Counted from the first letter of the stretch, positions 25,129 to 41,452 are shown. The stretch is 64,000 nucleotides of DNA from Candidatus Poseidoniales archaeon (GCA_012959275.1 DUDM01000043.1:2910-66909), one strand, 5' to 3'. A program made the numbers and translations. The notes: generated by a model not told the origin, from the letters alone.

Positions 25129-25821
25129 GTGTTAGCGATGATACGTTGTGTCGCATTCGATTGCGACGGGGTCTTAGCTGATGCAATTAGTTCCTGGAGA
25201 ACTTTGCACGATCATTTCGGCACCGATACAGGAGAGATGCTGCGACGCTTCATCGCTAAGGAAATTAGCGATGAGGAATTCATGCGCTATGATATCCAAT
25301 TGTGGAAATCCGTTCAAGCGGAGATTCACAGGGATGATTTGTTTCGAGCATATGCAGGCATCAAACTGATTACCGGTGCCCGTGAAGTGGTTGCAAGATT
25401 GCAAGAGGATGGAATACTGGTTGTTATTATCAGTGCAGGAATCGATATATTTGTTGGAGCAATCGCTGCAATGTTGAAAGTCGATGATTGGATTGCCAAT
25501 GGCTTCGAATTCGATGATGATGGATTCCTTTTAGATGAAGGTATCGTGAGAGTTTCTGCCCACAAAAAGGCAAGTGCTGTTGCACGAGTAATAGAGATGC
25601 ATGACCTTAGTGCTGAGGAAGTAGCCTGTATAGGTGATAGCGAGGTCGATTTGTCGATGCATGTGGAGGGTTCAACCTTCATTGGATTCAATCCAACGAG
25701 GAAGAGTTCCTTTGATGCGTTTGCAGAAGCGGGAGTTCCAATTGTTGAGAGTCGGGATTTGCGAGATATTTGGGTTCACCTGTTTGGTCAACCGTTTGAG
25801 GCGAAGGCATCAAGCCACTGA
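25129..25821 (+). CDS. HAD-superfamily hydrolase, phosphoserine-phosphatase-like (subfamily IB)
   Basis: Motif I FDCDGVL (DxDG), motif IV IGDSEVD near the C-terminus, alpha-helical cap region between them. 230 aa; an alternative start at 25138 (MIRC...) is possible. Confidence 0.7.
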   Translation: MLAMIRCVAFDCDGVLADAISSWRTLHDHFGTDTGEMLRRFIAKEISDEEFMRYDIQLWKSVQAEIHRDDLFRAYAGIKLITGAREVVARLQEDGILVVIISAGIDIFVGAIAAMLKVDDWIANGFEFDDDGFLLDEGIVRVSAHKKASAVARVIEMHDLSAEEVACIGDSEVDLSMHVEGSTFIGFNPTRKSSFDAFAEAGVPIVESRDLRDIWVHLFGQPFEAKASSH

Positions 25822-25837
25822 ATGCCATGCGTAGGAC

Positions 25838-27112
25838 ATGGCGCCTGCCAAGTCATCGTTGAGTATCATACTCACGTTGCTAGTGTTAAGCGCTGGATGT
25901 TTGTCTGATTCGCTTGATGATAGCGGTGTAACTTCTACAGAGGAAGTCTCCGGAAACTTGGTAATTTGGTCAACCTACGAGTCTGATTCAAAGGAAGAAG
26001 AGGCATTTTTGGATTCAGTTTCAGCCTGGCAAAAAATACATCCTGAAGTGGAAGTAGAAGTCACATCAAAACCATTCTATCAGGCAGTTCAGGCTTACAA
26101 GATTGCAGCCCTTGGTGGAGAGGCACCTGATTTGATGCGCTTTTCTAATGACCAATTAGGTAGCATTGCACCAGTTAGAGATAGAGGCAACCCACTTTTG
26201 GAGGACTTACGCCCTTGGTTAACCCCTGCTCAGCGTTCAGTATGGGATCCTATTGCCCTAGAATCGATGCGTTATGATGACGCACTTATGGCAATCCCAG
26301 TCAGTCAAGATTGTGTGAGTCTATTCTTCAATCGCGCCCTCTTTGATGAAGCCGGAATCAATTATCCCGATGAAAACTGGACAACTGCTGACTTTTTATC
26401 TGCAGCTCAAGACATGACCTTTGGCGAGCAAGTTGGCTTGTCTATTCCTACCAAGGACCCTTTTCGTTGGTTCTCGCTCAATAGCGGCTATGGGGGGAGT
26501 TTGTTCACTGCCAATGGTGAGGCGAACCTCGATGGAAATGGCTCGGCAGATGCTCTGCGTTTCTGGTTAGACCTAGAATTAAAACACGAAATCGTTCCGA
26601 CTGGAACAAACGTTGAGACCATGAAACAGCAATTCCTCAGTGGCAAGGCTGCGATGATTATTGATGGGCCTTGGCATTGGCCAACCTATACCGCCGCTCG
26701 CCTAGATGTTGGACAAGCCCTGCTTCCTATCGTTGAGGAGACTGGACTTCGAATGTCACCAATGGTCGGGTACAAGGGGTGGGCAGTCTCAAAACAAAGT
26801 CCAAACAAAGAATCTGCAATCTCTCTGGCGCTATATCTCTCATCTTCTGAGGTTGTCAAATACGCAGCCCTTGAAACTATGACTATGCCTGTACTCAGCA
26901 ATCTTTACGATGACCCCGATATCCATTCTGATGTCGCACTAAGGGGTTTCATCGCTCAAGCAAGACTAGGTTTCCCTGCACCTACAAGCAAAGGGATGTC
27001 AGCAATTTACGATATTCTTCCAACCGCAATTGAAAATTCTTATGTCGGTGAGATGAGTACCCAAGCAGCATTAACTGCGGCCAATCAAGAATTAAAGGAG
27101 GAAATGCGATGA
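25838..27112 (+). CDS. malE: ABC transporter substrate-binding protein, family 1 (maltose/maltodextrin-binding, MalE-like), lipobox-type signal peptide
   Basis: Signal peptide with LLVLSAGC lipobox-like Cys. NLVIWSTYESD...FLDSVSAWQKIHPEVEVEVT...APDLMRFSNDQLG parallels MalE (KLVIWINGDKGYNGL...GPDIIFWAHDRFG). First gene of a sugar-uptake/amylase operon. Confidence 0.75.
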   Translation: MAPAKSSLSIILTLLVLSAGCLSDSLDDSGVTSTEEVSGNLVIWSTYESDSKEEEAFLDSVSAWQKIHPEVEVEVTSKPFYQAVQAYKIAALGGEAPDLMRFSNDQLGSIAPVRDRGNPLLEDLRPWLTPAQRSVWDPIALESMRYDDALMAIPVSQDCVSLFFNRALFDEAGINYPDENWTTADFLSAAQDMTFGEQVGLSIPTKDPFRWFSLNSGYGGSLFTANGEANLDGNGSADALRFWLDLELKHEIVPTGTNVETMKQQFLSGKAAMIIDGPWHWPTYTAARLDVGQALLPIVEETGLRMSPMVGYKGWAVSKQSPNKESAISLALYLSSSEVVKYAALETMTMPVLSNLYDDPDIHSDVALRGFIAQARLGFPAPTSKGMSAIYDILPTAIENSYVGEMSTQAALTAANQELKEEMR

Positions 27113-28554
27113 AGTATTTTTTCTGGATAATTTTGGCTGTTTTCCTATTACCGGTAGTTTCTGCTCAGTCTCTCGACGTCCAAAGCGATTCTTCTGCTGC
27201 AGGTTTCAAACGGGTGCGAGTTTCAGTAGAAATTGAATCCTTCTCGGGTAATGGGAGCCTTGAGTTTCACGTATCAGAGACCTTCCATTCTGCGGTTGTT
27301 ATCATCCAAGGTCAAGCGGGAGAAATGACTCAACCACAAGTTGGAGAATGGTATGATGACTGCTGGACATCTAATAACTCGGGACTAAATTGGACCGAGA
27401 TTCATCGCGATGAAAACGGTCAGGCCCACGCCTTCTATTCCTCCCCCCAAATTCTTTCAATTCGTTGTGATTTAACCGGCATATCTCAATCTAAAGAGGA
27501 CAACCTTTCAGTGCGTCTTTTCGATGAAAACCAAGAATTGGATAGGATTGACACCGCTATTATAGCCTTGACAGCCGATGTCCTCCCCCCTCCTCCCGAC
27601 TCCAGTCCGGTCCTCTTTGCCATCGGAAGTATTGCATTGACCATCATCGCCTTGTTTGGCTATCTGCGCTGGAAAGACCGCAAGAGCATGAATCGTCACG
27701 GATTGGCATTCGTACTACCAGCATTCTTAGCCCTGGTTCTGCTGAGTTTCTATCCCGTCGCATATGGAATGGTTTTGTCTTTTACCGATGCTCATGAAGA
27801 ATCAATCGGCGATGAAGAATATAATGGTCTTGAAAATTACCTCGATGTTTTCACTTCAGGAGGTTTCCTTCGAGTCCTCTTCTTTACACTCGTCTGGACA
27901 TTTACCAATGTAATCTTCCACGTTGGAATCGGCGGTGCCTTAGCGATGTTATTACAACAAAAAGTCAGAGGAAAACTCGCTTATCGAACTCTGCTTTTAC
28001 TCCCTTGGGCTATTCCATCCTATATTTCGGTCCTCGTCTGGAAGGGGATGTTTCATCCTGAAGGCCTAGTCAACGTATTACTCGGTACGGAAACTGATTT
28101 CTTTTCTGGAGTGACAGAAGCCCAGACAATGGTCATCTTGGTTAATATCTGGTTAGGGGTGCCATTCATGATGATGAGTATCAGTGGAGCGCTCCAATCA
28201 ATCCCCGAGGATTTGCATGAAGCAGCAAAGGTCGAAGGTGTTAGTGATTGGGCCCGCTTACGACATATCACAATCCCATTGCTGAAGCCAACCGTTGTTC
28301 CACTGGCTTTGATGGGATTCATCTGGACATTCAATATGTTCAACGTCATCTTCCTTCTGACGAATGGTGGGCCTCAACTTTGGTTTGGAGAGCCGGGAGG
28401 AACTGATATTTTGATCACCTATGTTTATGATGTGGCCTTCGTCAAAGGAGAACTTGGCTTGGCAGCGGCTTGGTCAGTTGTCATCTTCATCATGCTAATG
28501 GCCTTTAGTTGGGCATATACAAAGGGTAGTAAGGCAACGGAGGCGGCGGTATGA
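27109..28554 (+). CDS. malF: ABC sugar transporter permease (MalF-like) with long N-terminal extracytoplasmic region
   Basis: Multiple TM helices. Binding-protein-dependent permease EAA loop: EAAKVEGVSDWARLRHITIPLLKPTVVPLAL. Start overlaps the malE stop by 4 nt (operon). Confidence 0.8.
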   Translation: MKYFFWIILAVFLLPVVSAQSLDVQSDSSAAGFKRVRVSVEIESFSGNGSLEFHVSETFHSAVVIIQGQAGEMTQPQVGEWYDDCWTSNNSGLNWTEIHRDENGQAHAFYSSPQILSIRCDLTGISQSKEDNLSVRLFDENQELDRIDTAIIALTADVLPPPPDSSPVLFAIGSIALTIIALFGYLRWKDRKSMNRHGLAFVLPAFLALVLLSFYPVAYGMVLSFTDAHEESIGDEEYNGLENYLDVFTSGGFLRVLFFTLVWTFTNVIFHVGIGGALAMLLQQKVRGKLAYRTLLLLPWAIPSYISVLVWKGMFHPEGLVNVLLGTETDFFSGVTEAQTMVILVNIWLGVPFMMMSISGALQSIPEDLHEAAKVEGVSDWARLRHITIPLLKPTVVPLALMGFIWTFNMFNVIFLLTNGGPQLWFGEPGGTDILITYVYDVAFVKGELGLAAAWSVVIFIMLMAFSWAYTKGSKATEAAV

Positions 28555-29819
28555 GCGAAGATTTGTCAAGTTCAGAATTGCCCCAAACGGACTTGGCTCG
28601 CCGTTGGTATATTCCATACGAGATGGAATTGATGCGCCGAGGTGCCATCCTCGTCATCCTAATCTGCCTCCCTATGTTCTGGATAGCAAGCCTACGAGGT
28701 GATGGCTGGCAAACTATCGCAATGGGGTTAGCAGGTGGACTACTCGCTGTATGGGCATTGCAGCAAAAAAACCGAGATATCATGTTAGTCTCGTCTGCTC
28801 TGATACTATTTTCTGGATTGATGCAGGCATTTTTTGCTTTGGAGGTCAAAGTTGCAGCCATCGATGTATGGTATTCTACAATCACAGTCGCATTAGGTGG
28901 CGGTGGGTTATGGGTTCTCAGCAGCCCCCACATGTCGCGCTGGCTTTCTTCAAGGTTGGAACTCGAAGAAGCAGAACGAGGTCTTGCTCGAAATAATAAA
29001 TTATCACCCCGTTGGAAAGCAGCAACAACTCATGCAATCCTTCTTCACTTCGTAGTCATCGTTCTCGTGCCAATTATCTGGATAATAGACGTAGCATTCT
29101 CACCTGGCCAATCCGCATCTGGAGAATTGGGTATTTCAGACTGGACAATCACCCACTTTGATGCAGTTCTATCGGGCTCGGACTTCTGGACTTGGGGATT
29201 GAACTCCGTTATCGTCTCTATTGGCACAACCATGGTTGGTTTGATGTTAGCAATCCCAGCCGGCTATGCATTTTCTCGCTACAAATTCAGCGGTCATGGC
29301 ATCATGATGTTCAGTCTTCTACTTGTCCAGATGTTCCCTGGAATAATCATCCTCGTTCCATATTTTATGGTCATGAAAACTCTTGGCCTGCTCAATACAT
29401 CGCTAGGTCTAATCCTCGCTTATTCGGTAACGGCCCTGCCATTCTGCGTCTGGATGCTAAAGGGCTGGTTCGACACAATACCTCGTGAATTAGAAGAAGC
29501 CGCAGCCTTGGATGGATGCACAACTTTCTCCACCTTCTGGCGAATCATCCTTCCCCTCTCATTGCCAGCAATTGCGGTAACTGCCTTATTCTCATTTTTG
29601 GCAGCATGGAATGAATTCCTCTTGGCATTGGTCTTCAATACCGACTCCAGTATGTACACCTTACCGGTTGGCCTAGCCTCTTACATTTCTGAGGCAAGTG
29701 CAAGATGGGGGGACTTCGCTGCGATGTCGCTAATCGTCTCCTTGCCGGTAGTTTTGCTATTCATCTTCTTCCAGAAATCCCTAATTCAGGGACTGTCTTC
29801 AGGGAGCGTCAAAGGTTGA
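28551..29819 (+). CDS. malG: ABC sugar transporter permease (MalG-like) with extra N-terminal TM helices
   Basis: EAA loop ELEEAAALDGCTTFSTFWRIILPLSLPAIAVTALFSF. Translationally coupled to the upstream permease (ATGA overlap). Confidence 0.8.
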   Translation: MSEDLSSSELPQTDLARRWYIPYEMELMRRGAILVILICLPMFWIASLRGDGWQTIAMGLAGGLLAVWALQQKNRDIMLVSSALILFSGLMQAFFALEVKVAAIDVWYSTITVALGGGGLWVLSSPHMSRWLSSRLELEEAERGLARNNKLSPRWKAATTHAILLHFVVIVLVPIIWIIDVAFSPGQSASGELGISDWTITHFDAVLSGSDFWTWGLNSVIVSIGTTMVGLMLAIPAGYAFSRYKFSGHGIMMFSLLLVQMFPGIIILVPYFMVMKTLGLLNTSLGLILAYSVTALPFCVWMLKGWFDTIPRELEEAAALDGCTTFSTFWRIILPLSLPAIAVTALFSFLAAWNEFLLALVFNTDSSMYTLPVGLASYISEASARWGDFAAMSLIVSLPVVLLFIFFQKSLIQGLSSGSVKG

Positions 29820-29828
29820 GGTGAGAAT

Positions 29829-30899
29829 ATGAGTGGAGTATCATTTGAAGGAATACGCAAAGTCTACGATGATGGAACAGTGGCGGTCAAAGGACTAGAC
29901 CTTACGATAAAAGACGGCGAATTCCTAGTCTTAGTAGGGCCATCAGGTTGCGGTAAATCAACAACATTGAGAATGTTGGCAGGCCTAGAAGACCTAACAG
30001 AAGGCAGCATAAAAATCGGCGAAGCAACAGTGGACCACCTTCCAGCAAGAGCCCGTGGACTCGGCATGGTTTTCCAATCATACGCCCTATACCCGCACAT
30101 GTCGGTCCAAGATAACTTGACTTTTGGACTACGAATGTTAGCCAAAACTGAGCGCCCCGACCCCCCAGAAATGAAGCGAATGGTTCAGGAAACTGCTAGC
30201 ATGTTAGGCATCGATGATATCCTTGAAAAGCGACCGCGAGACCTCTCCGGAGGACAGCGACAAAGAGTAGCACTCGGTAGAGCCTTGATACGAAAACCAA
30301 AGGTCATTCTAATGGATGAGCCCCTCTCAAACTTAGATGCAAAACTACGTAATCAAATGCGCGTAGAATTGCGAAGACTGCACGATGAACTAGGTTTCAC
30401 CACTGTCTATGTAACTCACGACCAAGTGGAAGCGATGACCTTAGCAGACCGAATCGCAGTCATGAAGGACGGAGAATTACAACAACATTGCCCTCCCTTA
30501 GAGGCCTATCACCAACCAGCCAATACATTCGTTGCCTCATTCTTGGGCACCCCTGCGATGAACTTAATCGAAGGCCAAGCAGAAGCTGGAGTATTCACCA
30601 GTAATGGGCTCTCATTCCCACTTCCAGATCACTTAAGTGATTGCACAGGAAAGGGAACCTTTGGCATCAGGCCAGAAAACGTGAAGGTGCTAAAATCCAA
30701 CGCTATGGAAGCAGAAATACGCGGAGTCGAGCGACTTGGTTCAGAAAGCGTCTATCATCTAAATGTCGGAGGAACCGATATCAAAGCCCTCTGGCATCGT
30801 TCTGGTGAAGAGGCGTGGGATGCGGAGAAAGGTGGTTGGCCAGAAGAAAATATGTTCATTTCCTTCAATGACCCTTCAGCACTATGGTTTAGCGCATGA
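29829..30899 (+). CDS. malK: ABC transporter ATP-binding protein MalK/UgpC type with C-terminal TOBE/regulatory domain
   Basis: Walker A GPSGCGKST, signature LSGGQRQRVALGRAL, Walker B ILMDEPLSNLD, H-loop VTHDQ. C-terminal extension of about 120 aa as in MalK. Confidence 0.85.
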   Translation: MSGVSFEGIRKVYDDGTVAVKGLDLTIKDGEFLVLVGPSGCGKSTTLRMLAGLEDLTEGSIKIGEATVDHLPARARGLGMVFQSYALYPHMSVQDNLTFGLRMLAKTERPDPPEMKRMVQETASMLGIDDILEKRPRDLSGGQRQRVALGRALIRKPKVILMDEPLSNLDAKLRNQMRVELRRLHDELGFTTVYVTHDQVEAMTLADRIAVMKDGELQQHCPPLEAYHQPANTFVASFLGTPAMNLIEGQAEAGVFTSNGLSFPLPDHLSDCTGKGTFGIRPENVKVLKSNAMEAEIRGVERLGSESVYHLNVGGTDIKALWHRSGEEAWDAEKGGWPEENMFISFNDPSALWFSA

Positions 30900-30908
30900 G
30901 GTGATAAG

Positions 30909-33900
30909 ATGAGGAAAGCAGTGGTATTGGCATTCTTGCTATTATCCGTGTTACTGCCTATCTCAAATGCAGATTCAGACTTTCAAAGGCCGCGTTCTAC
31001 AAGCACAGAGTTCAGTTATTCGGGGGATGCAGAAGATGTCGTCCTACGCGGTGAATGGAATTGGATTGAAGAAACTCCTCTAAGCCTCAATAACGGAGTA
31101 TGGGGTGTTTCTCTTGAACTTCAAGAAGGGATGTACTGCTACAAGTTCGTGGTTGATGATGTTTGGATTTTGGACCCCCTAAACAGCGAAACAACTTGGT
31201 GTGATGGCTTTGAGAATTCTCTAATCAGAATTGATGATAAAACAAAACCCAAACTCTCAGTAGAATCTCTCTCAATTGATAATAACTCGTTTTCAGCCAG
31301 CATTCTCTATTCTGGTTCAACACCAGACCAAGTCATTGCCACCTTAGACAAGGGAAGCGGCGGCATCTCCAGCACTTGGAATCTAGCAGATTGGAGTCTT
31401 GATATCAGCGCCAATAATCTTCAAGACGGGAAATACCGAATCAGAGTATCAGCCAGCGATGGGGAGCAAAATCAGGCAGAGGACCTCCTCCTTCCCTTTT
31501 GGATTGAAGAACAAAAATTCCAGTGGGATGATGCAGTCATCTACATGATAATGACCGACCGCTACATCAATGCCAATACCTCGAATGACCCAGCACCACT
31601 TTCTGGTGCCGCCAATGGCGGTGATTGGCTTGGCGGGGACATCGAAGGCATAACATCAAACCTCGATAATCTGCAAGAACTTGGCATCAACACATTGTGG
31701 TTAAGCCCACTTAATCAAGGGCCAAGCCATTTGGAAATAGCAGGAGATGGAGAGCATCAAGTCGCAGGCTACCACGGCTATTGGCCGGTTCAACCTAGAA
31801 CGATCGACAGCCGCCTTGGAGACGAAGCCCAACTAAACACTCTTGTCGATGCAGCACATAGTAGGGGCATCAGAGTGATGGCAGACATGGTTTTGAACCA
31901 TGTTCACGAAGACCATCCTTACTATACAGATAATCCGCAATGGTTCAACCAAGGTTGCCTATGTGGAAGCAGTGATTGCGATTGGACAGAGCGCCGCCTT
32001 GACTGCTTATTCATGCCATACATGCCCGATATCGATTGGCGCAACCGCAATGCCAGCGAGCAATTCATCAGCGATGCAATTTGGTGGGCGGAGCAGTTTA
32101 ATTTCGATGGCATGCGCCTTGATGCAGTCAAGCACGTTGATGATAACGCCATCAATAATATCGCAGCCCGAATATCTGAAAAATTTGAAGCAAGCGGACT
32201 GCGATTCTATCTCAAAGGTGAGACTGCAATGGGTTGGGTTGACGGCAGCGTAGCCGATAACCGAGAACAATATGATACCATCAATCGTTACATGGGCGAA
32301 GGGGGGTTAGATGGTCAAGCGGATTTTGTCCTATATCATGCGGTTGTGGATAATGTCCTTACAAGTGCTAACAAAGGGCTGATTCATCTCGATTATTGGA
32401 CCAAGCAAAGCCAAGAAGAATTCACAGAAGGCTCCATCATGGTTCCTTACATCGGCAGTCATGATGTACCGCGATTCATTTCGCGAGCAGACCCTGATGC
32501 AAACGGCGTTTGGAATCAATGGCAAGATTTGCCAACCAACACAACCAACAACACAGCATTTCAACGCTGGGAAATGGCGATGGCTTGGCTCCTAACAATT
32601 CCAGGTGCACCACTAATCTATGCTGGAGATGAGCATGCTATGGTTGGGGGAGCCGACCCTGATAATCGTAGAATGTTTGATGAATCAGCAAGGGATTCAG
32701 ACTGGGTACAATACTTTGCAAAAGCCAGAGCAGAACTTGAACCCTTGAGGAGAGGAGAATACGTTCAACTAACTGCCGAAGAGGATATCATGGCTTTTGC
32801 AAGACAAAGTGAGGAAGAGCATGTAGTAGTGGTGCTGAATCGCGGTGGCAATAGCATCAATCTATCCGCTCATCAATGGTTGGGCAATATGAGTAATTAT
32901 CTCGGCGAGATAGAATGGAATGGCGGAGTTATCGAGATGGATGGAGTTTCAGCTGCAATCTTCGTTCAAACTAAGCAAGCACCTTGTCCGCCACTAACTC
33001 TACAAGTGGAAAATACAACTGGAGAATTAGCAGATGCCCTACCAAAGGAAATCGATGTTTTTGGAATAAAACTGCTCGCTACAAGTGGGGTTATGGACGA
33101 TACATTATTGCATGCAGCGGGTATAATGGCAGGTTATCTCGACAATGATGGCGATGGTAAGCCAGATGACCAATCGGTGGTAGATGCAATGGTGGCAGCA
33201 AATGCCATGATGTTCATTCCCCGCAATGAAAATGAAATGGAGCAACTATTCGATATAATTCCAGAATCATTCCTCATCAAGGTGGATTCAGGAGAATACC
33301 AAGTCCAAGACTTGTTTGAAGATGAAATCAGGCCTGGTGGAAAGTCAGGTATGGGCTTTGATGCAAGCCTTGAGGAAGTGTTGCATCTCATCACCCACGT
33401 TGGATATGTCAATGCATACCCTGCTGTTTTCTCCGAGATGACGGGCAGTGAATTGACCAATGCGATGGACCTTGCCAGAGGTGGGCACTTTGAGGAAGAC
33501 GATGCATCATCTTGCGAGGATGACGAAGGGCAATGTGCAATTCCTGTTCAAGGTTATCCACAAACAGCATGGTATCATTATGAGGACCCTACCTGTGATT
33601 ATGCTTGTATGGCCACAGAATACCTCTACTGGGGATTAACAACATACATGGGAGTTCAAAGCGAGAGATGTGAATGGATATCAGAAGAATGGGAGGCGTG
33701 TACGCGCTATCAATTATCTGTGATGGATGAGGGGATGTTTTCATTGATTGAGCAGAGCACTTTGCCCAGAATAGCCCCTGATGGTGAAGTTTGTGATTCA
33801 ATTGTAGGGGATAACCATACACTTCCTGAAGAGAATAATACCACTTCAGAAGAGAATAATACCAACCCTGAGGATAATACTACTGTGCCTGTTGACAATA

Positions 33901-34037
33901 ATACAGGCAATGGGACTTCGGTTGAGGTTGAAAGTAAGTCAAGTGGCTTGATGGCGGAAAGTGCGAAATGGGTATTGTTAGGTTTGATTGGAATTGTTGT
34001 TGGGGCCTTAGTTTTCACTTCAAGACGAAGAGAATGA
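30909..34037 (+). CDS. Extracellular membrane-anchored GH13 alpha-amylase-family glycoside hydrolase with N-terminal CBM48/E-set starch-binding-like domain (1042 aa)
   Basis: Signal peptide MRKAVVLAFLLLSVLLPISNA. CBM48-like VLRGEWNWIE...GMYCYKFVVDDVWILDPLN. GH13 conserved regions: I GIRVMADMVLNHV, II GMRLDAVKHV, III YLKGETAMGW, IV YIGSHDVP. C-terminal TM helix WVLLGLIGIVVGALVFTS followed by RRRE. Confidence 0.85.
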   Translation: MRKAVVLAFLLLSVLLPISNADSDFQRPRSTSTEFSYSGDAEDVVLRGEWNWIEETPLSLNNGVWGVSLELQEGMYCYKFVVDDVWILDPLNSETTWCDGFENSLIRIDDKTKPKLSVESLSIDNNSFSASILYSGSTPDQVIATLDKGSGGISSTWNLADWSLDISANNLQDGKYRIRVSASDGEQNQAEDLLLPFWIEEQKFQWDDAVIYMIMTDRYINANTSNDPAPLSGAANGGDWLGGDIEGITSNLDNLQELGINTLWLSPLNQGPSHLEIAGDGEHQVAGYHGYWPVQPRTIDSRLGDEAQLNTLVDAAHSRGIRVMADMVLNHVHEDHPYYTDNPQWFNQGCLCGSSDCDWTERRLDCLFMPYMPDIDWRNRNASEQFISDAIWWAEQFNFDGMRLDAVKHVDDNAINNIAARISEKFEASGLRFYLKGETAMGWVDGSVADNREQYDTINRYMGEGGLDGQADFVLYHAVVDNVLTSANKGLIHLDYWTKQSQEEFTEGSIMVPYIGSHDVPRFISRADPDANGVWNQWQDLPTNTTNNTAFQRWEMAMAWLLTIPGAPLIYAGDEHAMVGGADPDNRRMFDESARDSDWVQYFAKARAELEPLRRGEYVQLTAEEDIMAFARQSEEEHVVVVLNRGGNSINLSAHQWLGNMSNYLGEIEWNGGVIEMDGVSAAIFVQTKQAPCPPLTLQVENTTGELADALPKEIDVFGIKLLATSGVMDDTLLHAAGIMAGYLDNDGDGKPDDQSVVDAMVAANAMMFIPRNENEMEQLFDIIPESFLIKVDSGEYQVQDLFEDEIRPGGKSGMGFDASLEEVLHLITHVGYVNAYPAVFSEMTGSELTNAMDLARGGHFEEDDASSCEDDEGQCAIPVQGYPQTAWYHYEDPTCDYACMATEYLYWGLTTYMGVQSERCEWISEEWEACTRYQLSVMDEGMFSLIEQSTLPRIAPDGEVCDSIVGDNHTLPEENNTTSEENNTNPEDNTTVPVDNNTGNGTSVEVESKSSGLMAESAKWVLLGLIGIVVGALVFTSRRRE

Positions 34038-35657
34038 GCGGTAAATTCGAACATACTCATCCAACATCCTAGCAGCAGTAAAACGCGCACTGGTCGAAAT
34101 AGCAGCCCTGCAAAATCCCCCCCATCTTTCATCCCCAGAATCCCACGCCGGTAGCACCTCATTTTCCAAAGAATCAAGCAAATCACGATTATCACGCTCG
34201 TCATCACGATCATCATCATTATTTCCTACAGCCCAACCATTTACCCCATGCTGACATCCTTCAGGCCACCAACCATCGAGAATAGAACAATTTGGAACCC
34301 CATTCATTACGGCCTTCATTCCACTAGTGCCACTCGCTTCCATCGGCCGCACGGGGTTATTCATCCAGACATCGACTCCACTGGTCATCGCTAAGCCTGT
34401 AGCCATTGAATAATCTTCAAGGAATACTACGGGAATGTCATCACCAAGTTTCTTTGCTGCAGCGTGGATATTACGAATCAGAGTCTTACCGCCCTCATCT
34501 TTTGGATGGGCCTTGCCGGCGAATACGAATTGCATTCTTCCTGTTCCTATCTGTCTTAATCTCTCAAGGTCATGGAATACCAAATCCGCTCGCTTGTAGG
34601 TGGCAAAGCGTCGAGCAAAGCCGATTGTCAATCTATCTTCGTGTAGTTCCACTCCACTCATCGATTGTACAATGTCGCGTAGGATGGCGCGCGATTTACT
34701 CCTTGCCACTACTAACTCAGGGGTTGGAATACGTCCAGCATGTGAGAGTAGTAAGGGGTCCTTTCGCCATCCTGCTATCTGTTCATCATAGAGTTCAGCC
34801 ATCGGCCCTGAAGTCCATGTAATGTGATGGGCTCCATTTGTGATCGGTTGAATATGATGCTCAGGAAACATCCCACTGGCAACATGGGCGTTGAGATTTG
34901 ATACTGCGTTTGCAGAGCCGCATAGGCTGATGGCGAGATGGCTCATCGATGCCCTATCAAGGCCTGCTAATTGTTGAGCATCGTCTGGTAGGAGTTTTCC
35001 AAGGACAACCTTCATCTCCTGCCAACTGAACCTATCGTGGCCGGCTGGAACAGGGGTATGAGTGGTGAATAGACTTCTATCCTTCAGTTCTTCTCTTGTC
35101 CATCCTTGGTCTAGCATTTCCAAGGCAGCAAAGGCACAATGTCCTTCGTTAAGATGGATTCCTTGTAGTGGCCAAACTCCCAATGCCTTGAGAGCCCTGA
35201 TACCACCTACTCCGAGCAGGTATTCTTGGCGGATGCGTGTGGAGTCATCGCCACCATAGAGGCGTTGAGCAAGGGTGGCATGTTCGGGAGAGTTATCGGG
35301 ATGTTGAGTGTCGAGGAATAGTACTTCTACGCTTTTTCCTGTAACTCCTGTTATGGTTTTCTTCCAGATTCTTGAATGCAGTTTTCGGCCATCAAGGTCA
35401 AGTGCCATGTCAATTCCAGTGTCGACCAAGAATTCCTTCGGCTCAAATTCGGGATAAGTTTCGCTCTGAATTCCATCTTCGTCTAAGTGCTGTCTTCCAT
35501 AGCCTTGGCGATAGAGCAATGTGATGGCTATGAAGTCCAAACCGGCATCTGCTGCTGCCTTGACGTGGTCGCCTGCTAATACTCCTAATCCACCTGAATA
35601 GGTAGGAAGCCGCGACTCCAAACCAATCTCCGCCGAGAAGTAAGCAATAGTGGCCAT
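34020..35657 (-). CDS. glgP: Alpha-glucan (maltodextrin/glycogen) phosphorylase, short archaeal GT35 type
   Basis: N-terminal MATIAYFSAEIGLESRLPTYSGGLGVLAGDHVKAAADAGLDFIAITLLYRQGYGRQ is the canonical alpha-glucan phosphorylase start. PLP-lysine region EASGTSGMKAVMNGV. 545 aa. Confidence 0.85.
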   Translation of the reverse strand: MATIAYFSAEIGLESRLPTYSGGLGVLAGDHVKAAADAGLDFIAITLLYRQGYGRQHLDEDGIQSETYPEFEPKEFLVDTGIDMALDLDGRKLHSRIWKKTITGVTGKSVEVLFLDTQHPDNSPEHATLAQRLYGGDDSTRIRQEYLLGVGGIRALKALGVWPLQGIHLNEGHCAFAALEMLDQGWTREELKDRSLFTTHTPVPAGHDRFSWQEMKVVLGKLLPDDAQQLAGLDRASMSHLAISLCGSANAVSNLNAHVASGMFPEHHIQPITNGAHHITWTSGPMAELYDEQIAGWRKDPLLLSHAGRIPTPELVVARSKSRAILRDIVQSMSGVELHEDRLTIGFARRFATYKRADLVFHDLERLRQIGTGRMQFVFAGKAHPKDEGGKTLIRNIHAAAKKLGDDIPVVFLEDYSMATGLAMTSGVDVWMNNPVRPMEASGTSGMKAVMNGVPNCSILDGWWPEGCQHGVNGWAVGNNDDDRDDERDNRDLLDSLENEVLPAWDSGDERWGGFCRAAISTSARFTAARMLDEYVRIYRSFSSS

Positions 35658-35681
35658 GCCTTTGCCGCTCTCCCATTATGC

Positions 35682-36929
35682 CTATGATGATGACGACGGT
35701 GGACTCAGATTGAATGAAGGCAAGTCTTGCCATTGGAATTGCCATTTCCAGTTTCCAAATGTTGTTCCTGGGACATTCATTCTTGCGCTTGTGCCCAATT
35801 CCATGATGTCTTGGAGGGGAATTATTGCCATTCCTGAATTGCAGTTGAGTGCTATGTTGATTAGAGTCTGACAAACAGATTTACCTTCCATTATTGAGAA
35901 TTCCTTTGGGGGAGAAATCCCCCAACTGGCGGTTGTATCATTATCGTGGGTGCCTGTATAGACCACTTGGTCTGCTTGGATATTATTTGGCCGGTTGGAG
36001 TTTTCGGGACTTCCTTCGAAGCCAAATTGCAGAACTGCCATGCCTTCGAGTTGGTGGCGCTTGCGTAATTCAATGACGGCAGGGGGGATTATTCCGAGGT
36101 CTTCAGCAATGATGCAGCGTGGACTTTTGGCAATATCGAGGAGTTGTTCTAACAATTCGTCTTTAGGGCCTTCTTGCCATTGGCCGTGCCTAGCGTTCTC
36201 GTCATCAGCCGGAATAGCCCATGCTGAATCAAACCCACGAAAGTGATCTATTCTGACGATATCGAATTGTCTCAGTAATCTTGCCATTCGTTGGCGCCAC
36301 CATTGCCAGCCCTCGGCTCTATGGGCATCCCAATCATAGAGTACAGTCCCCCATTTTTGTCCCTCTTCGCTGAAGTAATCAGGTGGCACTCCAGCCACTA
36401 CTGTTGGCATTCCATTTGCATCCAATTGGAATAATTCTCGGTGTGCCCAGACATCGGCTGAATCATGGGCGATGTAGAGGGGTAGGTCTCCAATCAGGCT
36501 GATTCCTTTGCTGGTCGCATATTGGCGTAGTTGATTCCATCGGTAGTTGAATTGTCTTTGGCAATCCGTGTTGATAATGACTTTGGAGAGTGTGGCTGGT
36601 TCACGTTCACGAAGTTCTGTCGGCCATTCGTACCATGGCGCCCCGCCCTGTTGCTTTTTGATGGCCTCATATAATGCCCAATCATCAAGCCAATATTCAT
36701 CTTCATCTGAAGTATCTAGTTGGCAATCGGATTGATTCAATTCGCACCATGCGGCAAATGCGGAGGGCGAAGAATAGGGGGAATTATGCTCATCTGGCGG
36801 GGTAATGGGGAGCATTTGCCAAACTGTTGCTCCTGATTTTGCGAGGATGTCGATGAATTGTTCTGCATCGTCGAGGTTGCCTGATGGTAATGAGGTGAGG
36901 TGACAGAGCACTCCCGTATACTGCACCAT
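35682..36929 (-). CDS. malQ: 4-alpha-glucanotransferase (amylomaltase, GH77)
   Basis: YTGVLCHLTSLPSG...WQMLPITPPDEHNSPYSSPSAFAAWCELN and downstream GH77 blocks (LIGDLPLYIAHDSADVW, DHFRGFDSAWAIP). Start placed at the internal ATG (MVQYTGVL...) because the 48-codon upstream extension of the ORF track overlaps the GH57 gene start. Confidence 0.8.
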   Translation of the reverse strand: MVQYTGVLCHLTSLPSGNLDDAEQFIDILAKSGATVWQMLPITPPDEHNSPYSSPSAFAAWCELNQSDCQLDTSDEDEYWLDDWALYEAIKKQQGGAPWYEWPTELREREPATLSKVIINTDCQRQFNYRWNQLRQYATSKGISLIGDLPLYIAHDSADVWAHRELFQLDANGMPTVVAGVPPDYFSEEGQKWGTVLYDWDAHRAEGWQWWRQRMARLLRQFDIVRIDHFRGFDSAWAIPADDENARHGQWQEGPKDELLEQLLDIAKSPRCIIAEDLGIIPPAVIELRKRHQLEGMAVLQFGFEGSPENSNRPNNIQADQVVYTGTHDNDTTASWGISPPKEFSIMEGKSVCQTLINIALNCNSGMAIIPLQDIMELGTSARMNVPGTTFGNWKWQFQWQDLPSFNLSPPSSSS

Positions 36930-36979
36930 GTTGCTGCGTGGCAGGCGAAAACCTTTGACATTGTGACAGCAGCGCATGT

Positions 36980-39900
36980 TTGATGCGTGGAGTTGCCCTG
37001 CTGATTTGCAGCATTCTAGTTTTGACTCCTTGGACCTCTTTAGTCGCCGCTGACAAGGATATTGACGGCTCATTAGATGATTGGGATGCTACAACCTTGA
37101 TGGCAACAGATTCCAATGAAGTTTCCTTCTTTATGGATTGGAATGCAAGCCATCTTTCCTTTGCTTGGAATAATACAGATTGGTCAAATTTGTCTTCAGG
37201 TGCTGATTTATTCATCTATCTCAATACTACTGAAAATGGTGCTGCGATGTCTAAGGATTGGGGTTTTGCTCATGTACTTCCTTTTGCTGCTGATTATGCT
37301 TTTATTTTGGAAGACATGAATTATTTCAGGTTGATTCAATGGAATGGCACTGGATGGGAAGATGGCGAGCAAGGTGGAATCAACGCATATATTGCCAATG
37401 ATGGCGAAAAGAAGAGTGAAATTAGCATTCCTCTCACTTCACTTTCTTCACCTAATGAATTTGGAGTATTATCATGGGCCCAAAATCAAGGCGAGGGGAA
37501 AGTATGGACTTCATTCCCTCCTCAAAACCCAGCCTTTCAAAACGCAGCAGAGACCTTTACCCATTATTACCAAGTCAACTTGAGTAATGCCACAAACCCT
37601 TCAGATTCACCCGTCTATGAAGATGAAAGGACAAGCGTAAAAGTGGATAATCCGCTTAATTTGGCCCTAGTTTTCCACCAGCATCAACCATATTACCGAA
37701 ACATGCTGACTGGAATGTATGAGATGCCTTGGGTCAGAGTCCATTCGATGACCGAATACGTGGACAGTCCTGGGATTTTGGCAAAATATCCAGATACAAA
37801 AATCGTCTATAATTTAGTCCCTTCTTTGATGGAACAGATGATTGACTACAACCAAAATGAAACTCTTGATATTCATACCGATTGGGCGAGGAGGACTTGG
37901 CCTGTTGATGAAGATGGCATGGTTACTGGTTATCCTGAAATGACTGAATATGAAATGCACAATATGCAGTTCCAATCTTTTTGGAATAGTGGTTGGATTT
38001 ACAATGTTAGCCAAGATGATGAGGAAAATGGTTGGCTATACCCTGCTTCGCTTGCCTACAAGGGATTCCAAGACAGAACTCTTCACAATCTAAAGCCGGC
38101 TACTATCATGAATGATGAACTGCTTCCTCCTCAAGATTTGTTGGACTTACAAGTTCTGTGGTTGCTTTTCCAGATTTCTCCTGATTATGTAAGGGGAGAT
38201 TATGCAGATGTGGGAGACCCTGAAGCAGATGGACGCAGCCCTCATTTTAATCAGTCTATAATCGACCTCTTCATACAGGGAAGTGGCTTCAAACCAACAG
38301 ACATCCTGATGGTGCTCGATTATCAACACGACCAGATGGGTAATGTTCTGCCGATGTATTCTGACTTAGCCGCCAGTGGTCAAGTTGAATTGACTACTAC
38401 TCCGTATTACCATCCAATAATGCCACTATTGATGAAAGATGGTTGGACAATGGAAGATGGGATTACAGTTCGCAAAGAGGCTTGGCCTGATGATACTGCA
38501 AAGCAATTAACGCGGGGTATGGATTTATTTGAATCTCAAATGGGCTTTCGCCCCGTAGGGATGTGGCCCAGCGAGCAATCTACTTCGCCTGCAATGATTC
38601 AGCCTGTGGTCGATGTTGGAGTCGAATGGTTCGTTAGCGATGAGGAAAACCTCGGCCGCTCATTTTTGGCTGACGGTAGCCATCCCGATACCGATGATGC
38701 TTCTGTCCTTACTTCTCCTTGGAGAGTTACTGGTGCTGATGGTGGAGAAGTTTCGGCATTCTTCCGGGACCGAGTAATTTCAGATAGAATCGCCTTCCAA
38801 TATGGTACAATGACGCCTGAGGCTGCGGTTACCGATTTCCTCTCCTATCTCGATGGTATTCGAGATGAACTTGTCGCTGCAGGCGAGGACCCAAGCGAAC
38901 ACATCATCACGGTTGCATTGGATGGTGAGAACTGGATGTTCATGTCGGAGTTTCAGCATCATGACAATGCAAGGCCATTCATGGAAGAATGGTATTCACG
39001 CCTTTCAAGCCATCCAACAATCCAGACCATGACGCCTGCAGAATTTTTGGATAACAACAATGTCTCTCGCGATATCGATGTCATCAATACCGGTTCATGG
39101 ATTGATGGAACCCTCTCTACTTGGGCAGGCGAAGAAGAAGAATCCCTTGCTTGGATAAGGCTTGTTGAAGCCCGCAAAGCATTGGTGGAATTTGAAGCAG
39201 CAAATCCAGGTCATAGCGGCCTTGAATCCGCTTGGGAATCATTGTATATCTCTGAAGGCAGCGATTGGTATTGGTGGTATGGTCTTGACCAAGATAGCGG
39301 TTATGATGAGTTATGGGATACTCTCTTCAAAGTACACCTCTCCAATATCTATCGGGCAGTTGACCTTGATTTACCACCCTACCTTCTCGATTTGTGGACC
39401 AATCCGGCAACCCCTGAAGAATCTGCAAATGCTATTATCGAGCCGATGATCGACGGCATTGCCTTGGCTGGGGAATGGGATGGCGCAGCCATCTATGATG
39501 CTTCATCTATCGATGGCGGCGACCTTGACATCAGCAAATTCTACCTCGGTTATGATTCAAGTAATGTCCATATTAGAGTTGACCTTGCCAATGCTACTCC
39601 TGCCGAAATAGATACTTGGAGCGATAAAAACGTCGACCTCTCCATTTACTTCATGCAATCCAACGCCATTAATTTTAATGAGGTCGAGACTAATTTCAGA
39701 ACATATTATGGCAATGAAATTCTTGGCTTCCCAGCCAAATACATGGTCTCATTTGATTTCTCTGAACTACGTGATGATGGGCGGGCCAAATGGAATCTAT
39801 TCGAAGCCAAGGGCAAGGTCGGCGAAAAGGAAAAGTGGAATCTAATCGCCACTTCAAATCTTGGCGCTTGCGCCGCAAAAGATGTCTATGAATTCAGCAT

Positions 39901-41452
39901 CCCTTGGTCGGAAATCGGCTTAGCGCCAAGATATACAACTCGCATCAAAGTTCTAACTTCATTCTACGAATCAACTGCCTACGGCGACGGCCAAGACCAA
40001 GAAATGGCACCCCCTGCCCCTGCAGAAATAATCCTTCCAGATTTGGAGGAATGGATAACTCTGCTCGATATCGACGATGCAATTGGAGACGATGATAGAG
40101 ATGGAGCAATCCAAATGCCATTGGCAACGGACTTCGCAAGTGACGGTAGCCTATGGGATATCCAACACTTGAAGATTTCACAAAGTTCGTGGAATGCCCG
40201 CTTCGAAGTGGAGGTTGATGACATTACAAACATCTGGGGCATGAGCAATGGATTCAGCCATCAAATTCTCCAAATCTACGTCGACCAAGGCAATAGCAGC
40301 AGTGGAAAAACTGCCATGCTAGAAGGAGCAAATGCTGTCGTAGCAGATGACTGGGCTTGGGAAGTTGCACTCTCAGCAACTGGAGAGCCAGGGGCAGTCA
40401 AGGCAGTAATGGCAGAAAGTGGAGAGACCATTTCCAAAGGAATTGAAGTATCAGCAAATAGCGATACAGACACCATCACTCTAACCGTCAACAAAGATGT
40501 CATTGGCCAAGATGTTGCAAGCTATCGGTACATCATCGTCTTAGGAAGTCAAGATGGCTTTGGCGATGGCAAATGGCGAGGAATAGATGCCAGTGCTAAG
40601 ACTTGGAGATTAGGGGGCGGTGCTGACCCAGCAAGCGATGATGGCATAGAATACGACCCCAATATTCTCGATATGATGACTCCAGAAGGTGTTGACCAGA
40701 ATGCAATGTTGGCAGATTATTCAGCAACTACTCATAAATTTGCAGCACTTACAGGAATAGAGATACCTGAATTGGAACAACAAATATTCGGAGCAACTGT
40801 TGTAGGAGCAACAGCCAGCAGCGCTATCATAGGATTCCAAACTACTCAAGCAACAACCTCGACCGTCTCGTGTGGGCAAAATACGGCAGTTGGAGCCAAT
40901 ACCACATCACATACAGTAACGGTGAATGGATTAACAACAGCAACAAATTACAGTTGTATAATCTCCGTACCTGGTATTGACAATATCAGTATTGAAGTCC
41001 AGACTTCAGCAGTCGAGGATACAACCCTGCCTGAAATTCTCAACGTGGTAGTCGTGGTCTCAGAAGATGGAGTGGCAAGTATAACTTGGTATACTTCAGA
41101 AGCCGCAACCGAAGCAATAGTCCTAACAAAAGGAAATGAAGAAATCCACATTGATGGCAGCCAAATCGCAATCTCAAAGAATCACCACCTCAGCAGTAAT
41201 ACGCCATTGTCAAGAGGTCAATGGACGGTTGGTGTAACTGCAATTGATGCGTCTGGAAATAGCAATACTAGCCATAGCGAATTCAGCGTCGAGGAAACTA
41301 CAGCAGCAACTCCAGAGGAGTCTGAAGAAAAAACAGAGACAACAAACTCGGGGAATATTTTTGCCGATACAAAGTTGCAAATTATGTTCTTAGTAGTCGT
41401 GCTATTGACAACCTTAGCAATGTTGCGCGGTAGAAGGAGCGACACCATCTAA
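36980..41452 (+). CDS. Extracellular membrane-anchored GH57-family alpha-glucan hydrolase (amylopullulanase/alpha-amylase-like), 1490 aa
   Basis: Signal peptide MMRGVALLICSILVLTPWTSLVAA. GH57 motifs LALVFHQHQPYY, TPYYHPIMPLL, ITVALDGENWMF. Long C-terminal beta-sandwich/Ig-like extensions. C-terminal TM helix IMFLVVVLLTTLAML followed by RGRRSDTI. Confidence 0.8.
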   Translation: MMRGVALLICSILVLTPWTSLVAADKDIDGSLDDWDATTLMATDSNEVSFFMDWNASHLSFAWNNTDWSNLSSGADLFIYLNTTENGAAMSKDWGFAHVLPFAADYAFILEDMNYFRLIQWNGTGWEDGEQGGINAYIANDGEKKSEISIPLTSLSSPNEFGVLSWAQNQGEGKVWTSFPPQNPAFQNAAETFTHYYQVNLSNATNPSDSPVYEDERTSVKVDNPLNLALVFHQHQPYYRNMLTGMYEMPWVRVHSMTEYVDSPGILAKYPDTKIVYNLVPSLMEQMIDYNQNETLDIHTDWARRTWPVDEDGMVTGYPEMTEYEMHNMQFQSFWNSGWIYNVSQDDEENGWLYPASLAYKGFQDRTLHNLKPATIMNDELLPPQDLLDLQVLWLLFQISPDYVRGDYADVGDPEADGRSPHFNQSIIDLFIQGSGFKPTDILMVLDYQHDQMGNVLPMYSDLAASGQVELTTTPYYHPIMPLLMKDGWTMEDGITVRKEAWPDDTAKQLTRGMDLFESQMGFRPVGMWPSEQSTSPAMIQPVVDVGVEWFVSDEENLGRSFLADGSHPDTDDASVLTSPWRVTGADGGEVSAFFRDRVISDRIAFQYGTMTPEAAVTDFLSYLDGIRDELVAAGEDPSEHIITVALDGENWMFMSEFQHHDNARPFMEEWYSRLSSHPTIQTMTPAEFLDNNNVSRDIDVINTGSWIDGTLSTWAGEEEESLAWIRLVEARKALVEFEAANPGHSGLESAWESLYISEGSDWYWWYGLDQDSGYDELWDTLFKVHLSNIYRAVDLDLPPYLLDLWTNPATPEESANAIIEPMIDGIALAGEWDGAAIYDASSIDGGDLDISKFYLGYDSSNVHIRVDLANATPAEIDTWSDKNVDLSIYFMQSNAINFNEVETNFRTYYGNEILGFPAKYMVSFDFSELRDDGRAKWNLFEAKGKVGEKEKWNLIATSNLGACAAKDVYEFSIPWSEIGLAPRYTTRIKVLTSFYESTAYGDGQDQEMAPPAPAEIILPDLEEWITLLDIDDAIGDDDRDGAIQMPLATDFASDGSLWDIQHLKISQSSWNARFEVEVDDITNIWGMSNGFSHQILQIYVDQGNSSSGKTAMLEGANAVVADDWAWEVALSATGEPGAVKAVMAESGETISKGIEVSANSDTDTITLTVNKDVIGQDVASYRYIIVLGSQDGFGDGKWRGIDASAKTWRLGGGADPASDDGIEYDPNILDMMTPEGVDQNAMLADYSATTHKFAALTGIEIPELEQQIFGATVVGATASSAIIGFQTTQATTSTVSCGQNTAVGANTTSHTVTVNGLTTATNYSCIISVPGIDNISIEVQTSAVEDTTLPEILNVVVVVSEDGVASITWYTSEAATEAIVLTKGNEEIHIDGSQIAISKNHHLSSNTPLSRGQWTVGVTAIDASGNSNTSHSEFSVEETTAATPEESEEKTETTNSGNIFADTKLQIMFLVVVLLTTLAMLRGRRSDTI

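Follow-up and report, generated by a model that had tools for sequence, protein, structure and literature searches.

A conserved locus for alpha-glucan utilization, predicted from the genome of a Poseidoniales (Marine Group II) archaeon, and a variable stalk in its surface amylase

We have analysed a stretch of 64,000 nucleotides (nt) of DNA, here called the window, from a Candidatus Poseidoniales archaeon (GCA_012959275.1, DUDM01000043.1:2910-66909). Between positions 25838 and 41452 it holds a group of genes whose products are predicted to act on alpha-glucans such as starch, glycogen and maltodextrins. An original prediction, made by a model from the DNA alone, had described contiguous genes for MalE-, MalF-, MalG- and MalK-like proteins, a GH13 enzyme, a phosphorylase, a GH77 enzyme and a GH57 enzyme, and we found all of them, with families matched by Pfam and NCBIfam. 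The nine open reading frames (ORFs) that it had named are intact and uninterrupted and lie where it had placed them, and the Pfam assignments of the window genes are well above the curated cut-offs. For GH57, GH77 and a neighbouring HAD gene, start codons were corrected according to the gene calls in related contigs. The genes of the locus are as follows.

25838-27112, plus strand: substrate-binding protein (SBP) of maltodextrin type, CUT1 family; SBP_bac_1 at 92.7 bits (cut-off 26), with a signal peptide and a lipobox-like LSAGC
27109-28554, plus strand: MalF-like permease; BPD_transp_1, and NCBIfam MalF at 190 bits over amino acids (aa) 239-475
28551-29819, plus strand: MalG-like permease; BPD_transp_1, and NCBIfam MalG at 188 bits over aa 150-422
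29829-30899, plus strand: ATP-binding cassette (ABC) ATPase of MalK/UgpC type; ABC_tran at 121 bits, a C-terminal regulatory domain (OB_MalK, TOBE_2), NCBIfam UgpC at 408 bits and MalK at 348 bits
30909-34037, plus strand: GH13 alpha-amylase, 1042 aa; Alpha-amylase (PF00128) at 140.4 bits (cut-off 22), AMPK1_CBM and Malt_amylase_C
34020-35657, minus strand: alpha-glucan (maltodextrin) phosphorylase of the short GT35 type, 545 aa; TIGR02094 at 500 bits (cut-off 191.7)
35682-36929, minus strand (ORF originally drawn to 37073): GH77 4-alpha-glucanotransferase (amylomaltase), 415 aa; Glyco_hydro_77 (PF02446) at 402.8 bits and TIGR00217 (malQ) at 218.6 bits (cut-off 205.65)
36983-41452, plus strand (ORF originally drawn from 36980, 1490 aa): GH57 amylopullulanase-type enzyme, 1489 aa; Glyco_hydro_57 (PF03065) at 182.8 bits (cut-off 21.2) and Glucodextran_C at 168.6 bits

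The first four genes make up a complete and contiguous set for a MalEFGK2-type (CUT1) importer, with one SBP, two BPD_transp_1 permeases and a MalK-type ATPase that carries the regulatory domain. In a comparison with the sequences of the PDB, the closest native solved relative of the SBP is the maltodextrin-binding protein of Pyrococcus furiosus (1ELJ; 98 bits). Further solved relatives are 6FFL, GacH, 2GH9 and 2ZYK; the types represented are a Bdellovibrio maltose/maltodextrin protein, the acarbose/maltose binder GacH and a Thermus maltose/maltodextrin binder, followed by MalE of Escherichia coli. As the nearest solved relatives are binders of maltodextrin, cyclodextrin or acarbose, the possibility raised in the original prediction, that the SBP might group with non-maltodextrin specificities, was not borne out.

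Both permeases carry additional N-terminal sequence, which to our knowledge would not be expected in a typical MalF or MalG. According to hydropathy, that of MalF (aa 1-195, 27109-27690) consists of a signal/anchor helix, an extracellular domain of about 145 aa (27166-27606) with four N-glycosylation sequons and one transmembrane segment, after which the core of six transmembrane segments begins. The extension of MalG is about 150 aa long (aa 1-155, 28551-29015) and contains several hydrophobic segments. In other Poseidoniales the MalF domain is weakly conserved and the MalG extension has an identity of 25-32%; a Pfam scan of the two extensions, even when relaxed, gave nothing usable.

The GH13 protein begins with a hydrophobic signal sequence (aa 4-22), followed by a CBM48 domain (aa 32-110), an Ig-like domain, the catalytic domain (aa 201-589) and domain C (aa 616-685). 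The remainder comprises an extra domain of 288 aa, a linker rich in N-glycosylation sequons and a single transmembrane segment (aa ~1013-1035) ahead of a basic RRRE tail. The CBM48 domain (PF16561, AMPK1_CBM; 44.6 bits against a cut-off of 26.8) is found in nearly all orthologs. Regions I-IV of the family are present, with region I as DMVLNH, and region V reads MPDID. The catalytic triad that was to be looked for in regions II, III and IV is complete: the nucleophile D405 (in GMRLDAVKH), the acid/base E438 (in YLKGE) and D519 (in GSHD) are all kept and align with those of the alpha-amylase 4E2O.

The solved relatives of GH13 and of the SBP also bear on a different route, in which the GH13 enzyme would be a cyclodextrin glucanotransferase (CGTase) acting on external starch and its cyclodextrins would be imported by an ABC system with a cyclodextrin-binding protein. 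Such a route has been proposed for some Thermococcales and Thermoanaerobacterales. Some sources give GH13 orthologs (P0438) the label 'Cyclomaltodextrin glucanotransferase', CGTases are among the solved relatives of GH13 at ~90-110 bits, and the SBP resembles both the cyclo/maltodextrin binder 2ZYK (87 bits) and GanS, formerly named CycB. However, plain alpha-amylases are clearly ahead of the CGTases as top solved relatives of the catalytic domain (4E2O at 168 bits, 5A2A/B at 136 bits; we take 4E2O and 5A2A to be 'intermediary' alpha-amylases of GH13_36), and Pfam found neither a CBM20 nor a domain D/E of the CGTase type in GH13. Furthermore, the cluster has no cytoplasmic cyclomaltodextrinase, its cytoplasmic enzymes being GH77 and GT35. 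We therefore regard the cyclodextrin route as improbable.

The GH57 enzyme is organized in a comparable manner. Its most likely start is the ATG at 36983, as called in six related contigs, and from there the protein consists of a signal peptide (aa 4-22), a CBM9-like domain (37052-37648), the catalytic region (~37664-39280), an unassigned region, the Glucodextran_C domain (40064-40750), an Ig/FN3-like region, one transmembrane segment (~41351-41407) and a basic tail. All five conserved regions of the family can be recognized (HQHQP, GQVELTTTPYYHPI, WPSEQ, LDGENW and EGSDWYWWY). In GH57 enzymes the Glu of the third region is the nucleophile and the Asp of the fourth the proton donor (Martinovicova & Janecek 2018, PMC6037648). 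The corresponding E531 (WPSE) and D647 (LDGENW), the pair that the original prediction had proposed to check, are present in the window protein and unchanged in nine orthologs with identities as low as 50%. The combination of GH57 with Glucodextran_C is an amylopullulanase-type architecture, and amylopullulanase specificity is predicted from it and from the name given to the family by Li et al. 2015. The architecture makes plausible the division of labour suggested at the outset, in which GH13 would deal with amylose and GH57 with branched glucan.

The N-terminal 199 aa of GH57 are modelled by AlphaFold as a beta-sandwich with a predicted local distance difference test (pLDDT) value of 88.6. 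Its best fold match is the CBM9 domain 7NWN (E=3.9e-4, probability 1.0, TM-score 0.47), aligned over the full length. We also considered this domain as a duplicate of Glucodextran_C and rejected the idea, as there is no similarity between them. A relaxed Pfam scan of the unassigned regions of GH57 gave nothing usable.

As large multi-module surface proteins with CBM48, CBM9-like and Glucodextran_C domains, GH13 and GH57 could in principle act as adhesins, and one or both might be inactive, lectin-like proteins of a decayed locus. The catalytic residues and conserved regions speak against this; they are intact and invariant among orthologs down to 50% identity, so the loss of catalytic residues that the original prediction had named as a reason for doubt is not seen in either hydrolase. 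In addition, the ORFs are uninterrupted, and transcripts of the GH57 and GH77 families are known from Marine Group II (MG-II) archaea of Guaymas. A purely binding role for these proteins is, in our opinion, very improbable.

Both cytoplasmic enzymes have the motifs expected of their families. GT35 scores 411 bits with the model for Thermococcales maltodextrin phosphorylase and 295 bits with PDB 9L6I/20YR, and contains the motif EASGTSGMK; the lysine of this motif, K448, is presumably the one that binds pyridoxal phosphate. The most likely start of GH77 is the Met at 36929, as it is called as a 415-aa protein in three related contigs. Its motifs RIDHFRGF, AEDLG and GTHDND are present, and within RIDHF, AEDLG and THDND we assume the catalytic Asp, Glu and Asp to lie.

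The predicted location of the proteins separates the two groups of enzymes. Among SBP, GH13, GH57, MalK, GT35 and GH77, N-terminal export signals were seen on SBP, GH13 and GH57 only; by hydropathy, MalK, GT35 and GH77 have neither a signal peptide nor a transmembrane segment. N-X-S/T sequons are numerous in both hydrolases, and in GH13 they are concentrated in a linker of EENNTT type just before the anchor. The hydrolases had been called tail-anchored: the C-terminal transmembrane anchor is indeed there in both, although the term does not apply in its strict sense because both also have N-terminal signal peptides that look cleavable. Their sequences mark GH13 and GH57 as C-terminally anchored secreted proteins.

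This topology also helps in judging whether the enzymes might manage the archaeon's own storage glycogen and not external glucans. In various prokaryotes, glycogen metabolism involves members of all four families (GT35, GH77, GH13 and GH57), and here GT35 and GH77 are cytoplasmic. However, GH13 and GH57 have signal peptides, sequon-rich linkers and C-terminal anchors, and they share an operon or synteny with a binding-protein-dependent importer, and neither glycogen synthase nor branching enzyme was found in the locus by Pfam and ORF scans. Internal glycogen turnover is thus most unlikely to be the function of the locus.

We consider it highly probable that this is a conserved alpha-glucan utilization locus. 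Its core, as originally proposed, is surface depolymerization, ABC import of maltodextrins and cytoplasmic disproportionation and phosphorolysis, and it draws support from the protein families, the catalytic residues, the relatives of the SBP and the export signals, as well as from the gene spacing, the conserved synteny and the published observations on MG-II described below. Several observations weigh against this interpretation. The top NCBIfam model for the SBP is GanS, for galacto-oligosaccharides (118 bits), ahead of MalE (96 bits), and both scores are far below the equivalog cut-offs (700 and 291 bits, respectively). The permeases and the ATPase likewise fall far below the equivalog cut-offs of the MalF, MalG and MalK models. 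The top solved relatives of GH57 are short enzymes of 477 aa (9JLQ/8ZYI; 151 bits). Finally, neither phosphoglucomutase nor glucokinase turned up among the scanned window ORFs of at least 150 aa. The ranking of GanS above MalE, together with the low scores, means that we can only infer the exact ligand of the SBP, for which maltodextrin is the best-supported candidate. The pathway had also been described as self-contained; the genes for depolymerization, uptake and phosphorolysis/disproportionation do stand together, but they lead only as far as glucose-1-phosphate and glucose.

The pathway may operate as follows. GH13 and GH57 would be exported by means of their signal peptides and remain attached to the cell surface through the single C-terminal transmembrane segment, behind a sequon-rich linker. 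Going by what is known of their families, they would cut alpha-1,4 linkages (GH57 probably alpha-1,6 linkages too) in particulate or dissolved alpha-glucan, and the resulting maltodextrins would be captured by the lipid-anchored, MalE-like SBP and taken in by the MalFGK2-type ABC importer. In the cytoplasm, the GH77 amylomaltase would convert short maltodextrins into longer chains and glucose, and the GT35 phosphorylase would then free glucose-1-phosphate, following the MalQ/MalP logic of E. coli. The phosphoglucomutase and glucokinase that such a pathway needs would have to be encoded elsewhere.

The spacing of the genes fits operons. SBP and MalF, and MalF and MalG, overlap by 4 nt each, and gaps of 9 nt each precede MalK and GH13. 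GT35 and GH77, on the minus strand, form a second unit that is convergent with GH13 and divergent from GH57; with the GH77 start at Met 36929, an apparent overlap of 94 nt with GH57 disappears. There are probably three transcription units: SBP-MalF-MalG-MalK-GH13 on the plus strand, perhaps led by the HAD gene; a minus-strand unit, GH77-GT35; and GH57 by itself, in divergent orientation to GH77.

Among characterized systems, the closest parallel is found in the Thermococcales. The mdx (Mal-II) maltodextrin operon of P. furiosus comprises PF1938-1936 and PF1933, and in Thermococcales mdxK is typically separated from mdxEFG by an amylopullulanase gene (Noll et al. 2008, PMC2246101). As in that system, an archaeal CUT1 importer is clustered here with a large, C-terminally anchored enzyme of the GH57 amylopullulanase type, and it is from P. 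furiosus that the best native solved relative of the window SBP comes. The window differs in its gene order, which is EFGK, GH13, GT35/GH77 on the other strand and then GH57, and in having a second extracellular enzyme (GH13 with CBM48) as well as the cytoplasmic enzymes in the same locus. Its glucanotransferase belongs to GH77, whereas that of Thermococcus is a GH57 enzyme; its MalF and MalG have N-terminal extensions, and its host is mesophilic and planktonic. A TrmB-type regulator was not seen adjoining the locus.

The maltose system of E. coli (MalEFGK2, MalQ, MalP, MalS) shares with the window a binding-protein-dependent importer, intracellular GH77 and GT35 enzymes and an exported GH13 enzyme, and for the window permeases and ATPase NCBIfam MalF, MalG and MalK rank first or nearly first among the models. 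In contrast, the window proteins score far below the equivalog cut-offs, LamB and an outer membrane are lacking, the surface enzymes are membrane-anchored and not periplasmic, a GH57 enzyme is added, and GT35 is of the short, 545-aa type (TIGR02094) whereas E. coli MalP has ~800 aa. Similarly, the GH13 enzyme aligns with the Geobacillus/Anoxybacillus alpha-amylases (4E2O, 5A2A) in its catalytic Asp/Glu/Asp and regions I-IV, but adds to them an N-terminal CBM48 and Ig-like domain, the 288-aa domain, the sequon-rich linker and a transmembrane segment. The GH57 enzyme resembles the long amylopullulanases in its five conserved regions followed by Glucodextran_C. However, its length of 1489 aa compares with a mean of 814 aa for the family (PMC6037648), and it has an N-terminal CBM9-like module.

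To assess the conservation of the locus, a GH57 alignment was used to retrieve 80 genome loci, which were then searched by tblastn with the window proteins. The arrangement SBP-MalF-MalG-MalK-GH13, GT35 and GH77 on the opposite strand, GH57, the small subunit of PolD and CinA occurs in ~12 species-level Poseidoniales genomes at 45-70% amino acid identity, and some of the genomes with conserved order are labelled Poseidoniaceae or Poseidonia. The same arrangement was found in ~70 metagenome contigs, and recurrence in so many species-level genomes and dozens of contigs is therefore far more than would be expected by chance. In one case (L017, PBNP01000035.1) a full locus of the Poseidoniales type, at 50% identity, has a rearranged order. 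This sequence was deposited in a metagenome-assembled genome (MAG) named Flavobacteriaceae, and a GT35 of the identical cluster (P0521) is labelled Deltaproteobacteria; both labels are probably binning errors in public MAGs. At a greater distance (~30% identity), a Thermoplasmata MAG and many genomes of Anaerolineae (Chloroflexota), Thermotogota and Bipolaricaulota have GH57 with Glucodextran_C beside SBP-MalF-MalG, often together with GH13. The mdx operon of the Thermococcales follows the same theme.

The host is recognized as an archaeon from the flanking genes, which encode the small subunit of PolD (DNA polymerase II; 459 bits against a cut-off of 445), a Pelota/aRF1-type protein, RFC and GatD. 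In public records, GH57 and GH13 homologs are labelled Candidatus Poseidoniales, Thalassarchaeaceae and Poseidoniaceae, and the identical GH13 protein is entered as a hypothetical protein of 'Candidatus Poseidoniales archaeon'. Window positions 25001-40899 are 99.9% identical to the Joint Genome Institute (JGI) contig GBIDBA_10000199, which we take from its sample name to be part of a Guaymas Basin plume assembly. The GC content is flat, at 0.45-0.48 over the region and its flanks, and Pfam and ORF scans of the window found no mobility genes. Given this composition, the housekeeping flanks, the lack of mobility genes and a gene order that is conserved across Poseidoniales as far as the PolD/CinA flank, the word 'island' used in the original prediction does not fit. 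By its conservation, the locus presents itself as an ancestral core locus of Poseidoniales.

The most variable part of the locus is the stalk of the GH13 protein, between domain C and the anchor. In the window and its relatives it is occupied as follows.

32964-33827, plus strand: domain of unknown function within the GH13 gene (aa 686-973, 288 aa), variable among close strains and without a database family
~aa 700-1000 of the orthologs in L008 and L022, and in P0398, P0401, P0477 and P0434: GH13 orthologs with alternative stalk states, either other modules or none

The segment for the 288-aa domain is present or absent even among close relatives. In a contig with 99.9% identical flanks (L004, 13137-13262), '...GVSAAIF' joins directly to 'ALSDENNTTPEENNTT...', so that aa 686-973 are skipped. 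A complete short allele of 771 aa (P0542) lacks the 288-aa domain and shares with the window protein its signal peptide, linker, anchor and catalytic part (the last at 92% identity); a long allele (P0383) has 93% identity. In two further long alleles, L091 and P0121 (GT35 follows), the 288-aa domain is 85% identical, and in a distant lineage (L132/L137) a GH13-fused 288-aa domain is still 58.5% identical with an SBP of just 53%. Only two of the 120 closest GH13 ortholog clusters have the domain. In four near-identical MAG scaffolds GH13 was not called; we considered pseudogenization there and rejected it, as the missing calls are due to scaffold gaps of 100 N that run from window position 32964 to 33828. 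These gaps coincide with the boundaries of the variable domain. No direct repeats, which might have pointed to a mechanism for the insertion or deletion, were found flanking the 864-nt segment, and its GC content (0.45 against 0.467) is not deviant, so there is no sign of a recent foreign origin.

In other lineages the stalk contains nothing (forms of 775 aa), Cys repeats, a beta-sandwich-like 'HCLIV.N' module, cupredoxin-like domains, an esterase-looking module or a reprolysin-like metallopeptidase with the motif HEIGHLFGGRH (Reprolysin_4 at 24.9 bits, cut-off 22). The Cys repeat, 'GCT(D/N)xSAxNYxxxAxxDDGSCxY', is ~27 aa long; about half of the GH13 orthologs (L009, L020, L023, L024, L028 and others, in the C-terminal 150-250 aa) carry one to four copies ahead of the anchor, often followed by a Cys-rich segment, 'CEGCCG...'. 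The repeat matched no Pfam model, apart from spurious hits to PsaN. The C-terminal anchor itself is kept in nearly all orthologs. As judged from these sequences, the GH13 stalk is a site of domain swapping, at which different lineages carry different add-on modules.

The 288-aa domain belongs to a widespread family, which comprises 1021 clusters at 50% identity (E<=1e-3). Searches of the PDB with phmmer and with a family profile gave no match, nor did Pfam (29 members scanned) or NCBIfam. Most members are standalone proteins of 270-340 aa with signal peptides, lipoprotein signals or tails of the type IX secretion system (T9SS), and bacterial homologs 40-57% identical to the window domain occur in marine Bacteroidota, Vibrio, Ferrimonas, Planctomycetota and Opitutales. 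Fusions to Trypsin_2, Peptidase_S8, a TAP-like alpha/beta hydrolase or EF-hands are seen in some members, and one bacterial homolog adjoins an S41 peptidase. Around four bacterial homologs there was neither a polysaccharide utilization locus nor a conserved neighbour. The AlphaFold2 model of the domain has a pLDDT of 91, and Foldseek searches of the PDB and BFVD with it gave weak matches to M9 collagenases (E=0.045, TM-score 0.27) and to uncharacterized baculovirus ORFs. We considered a zincin metallopeptidase and rejected it: within the motif EEVLHLITH only E137, E138 and H141 are conserved across 259 members, and the second His is not. The family has ~47 near-invariant residues (His, Asp/Glu, Arg, Tyr/Trp and one Cys pair). 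We regard the domain as real and conserved, and as probably enzymatic; a peptidase-related role is a weak lead.

From this we put forward a tentative suggestion, which we think more likely to be wrong than right. The stalk might be a 'cargo slot' that displays interchangeable secreted modules beside the amylase. The 288-aa domain would then provide the first functional context for a family of more than 1000 clusters, possibly a new hydrolase family, perhaps one that attacks the coat (protein or glycoprotein) of particles containing glucan. A new hydrolase family is conceivable because of the near-invariant residues and a confident fold without a solved relative, and a role on the coat because of the bacterial fusions to trypsin-like, subtilisin-like and TAP-like peptidases and the reprolysin-like protease in the slot of a sister lineage. 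If this were true, the presence or absence of the domain among strains at least 92% identical would be a segregating functional polymorphism.

Upstream of the importer genes lie two further ORFs.

25138-25821, plus strand (ORF originally drawn from 25129): HAD-IB phosphatase-like protein (phosphoserine-phosphatase-like, archaeal type), 227 aa; Pfam HAD at 60.5 bits
11419-25008, directly upstream of HAD: ORF of 4529 aa; Pfam archaeal Pilin_N and a faint Copper-bind

The HAD protein scores 144 bits with TIGR01491, slightly under the cut-off of 151.9, and only 16 nt separate its stop from the start of the SBP gene. Between the stop of the giant gene and the HAD start (25009-25128) are two GC-rich hairpins, GGCTGGCAC..GTGCCAGTC and CCCTTCGCAG..CTGCGAAGGG, which may be a transcript-end structure. 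The short gap and the hairpins after the giant gene fit a transcription unit that starts at HAD, and co-transcription with the transport genes, as originally suggested, is thus possible. However, among 80 metagenome loci centred on the SBP, of which 69 had at least 900 nt of upstream sequence, HAD was directly upstream of the SBP in 26 of the 69; in the other 43, the upstream sequence available, 0.9-7 kb, did not contain it. HAD is therefore a neighbour specific to a clade and does not belong to the core of the locus. Homologs of the C-terminus of the giant ORF (34-41% identity) precede HAD-SBP in all 26 HAD-bearing loci, which makes it a conserved neighbour within that clade, and the 4529-aa protein may be a giant surface adhesin.

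Elsewhere in the window, the following ORFs were seen.

46340-47821, minus strand: protein of 493 aa with PfkB-family sugar kinase and KDPG/KHG aldolase domains
2875-7581: large ORF, 1568 aa; MacB_PCD/FtsX domains at the C-terminus
7758-10931: large ORF, 1057 aa; no Pfam match
44016-46331: large ORF, 771 aa; no Pfam match
54471-57212: large ORF, 913 aa; Big_9/cadherin-like domains

The 493-aa protein may be a fused 2-keto-3-deoxygluconate (KDG) kinase and aldolase of an Entner-Doudoroff-type route. The region as a whole is rich in large surface or membrane proteins.

At the level of gene inventories, the gene content of this locus was already known. The MG-II transcripts that are abundant at Guaymas include those for amylopullulanase (GH57) and 4-alpha-glucanotransferase (GH77) (Li et al. 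2015, PMC4660358), starch/glycogen-type hydrolases have been described for MGIIa and basal MGIIb (Tully 2019), and a maltose transporter with an associated glucanotransferase, lost in some genera, for MGII (Rinke 2019); GH13, GH57 and GH77 have been cited for one MGII genus (Orellana 2019). To this record, a coherent, conserved locus and the topology of its products are a modest addition. What is new here is the GH13 stalk as a site of domain swapping, and its unannotated domain family.

In summary, Marine Group II archaea rank among the most abundant heterotrophs of the ocean that have not been cultured, and their diet is still argued from gene inventories. This work places their alpha-glucan genes in one coherent, conserved unit of predicted surface enzymes, importer and cytoplasmic enzymes, and not among scattered hits. 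In practice, the unit could serve as a marker locus for starch or glycogen use in metatranscriptomes, and it offers a concrete set of proteins. Furthermore, the variable stalk and its unannotated family are a small lead on how Marine Group II archaea may customize their cell surface, and a handle on a widespread unknown family.

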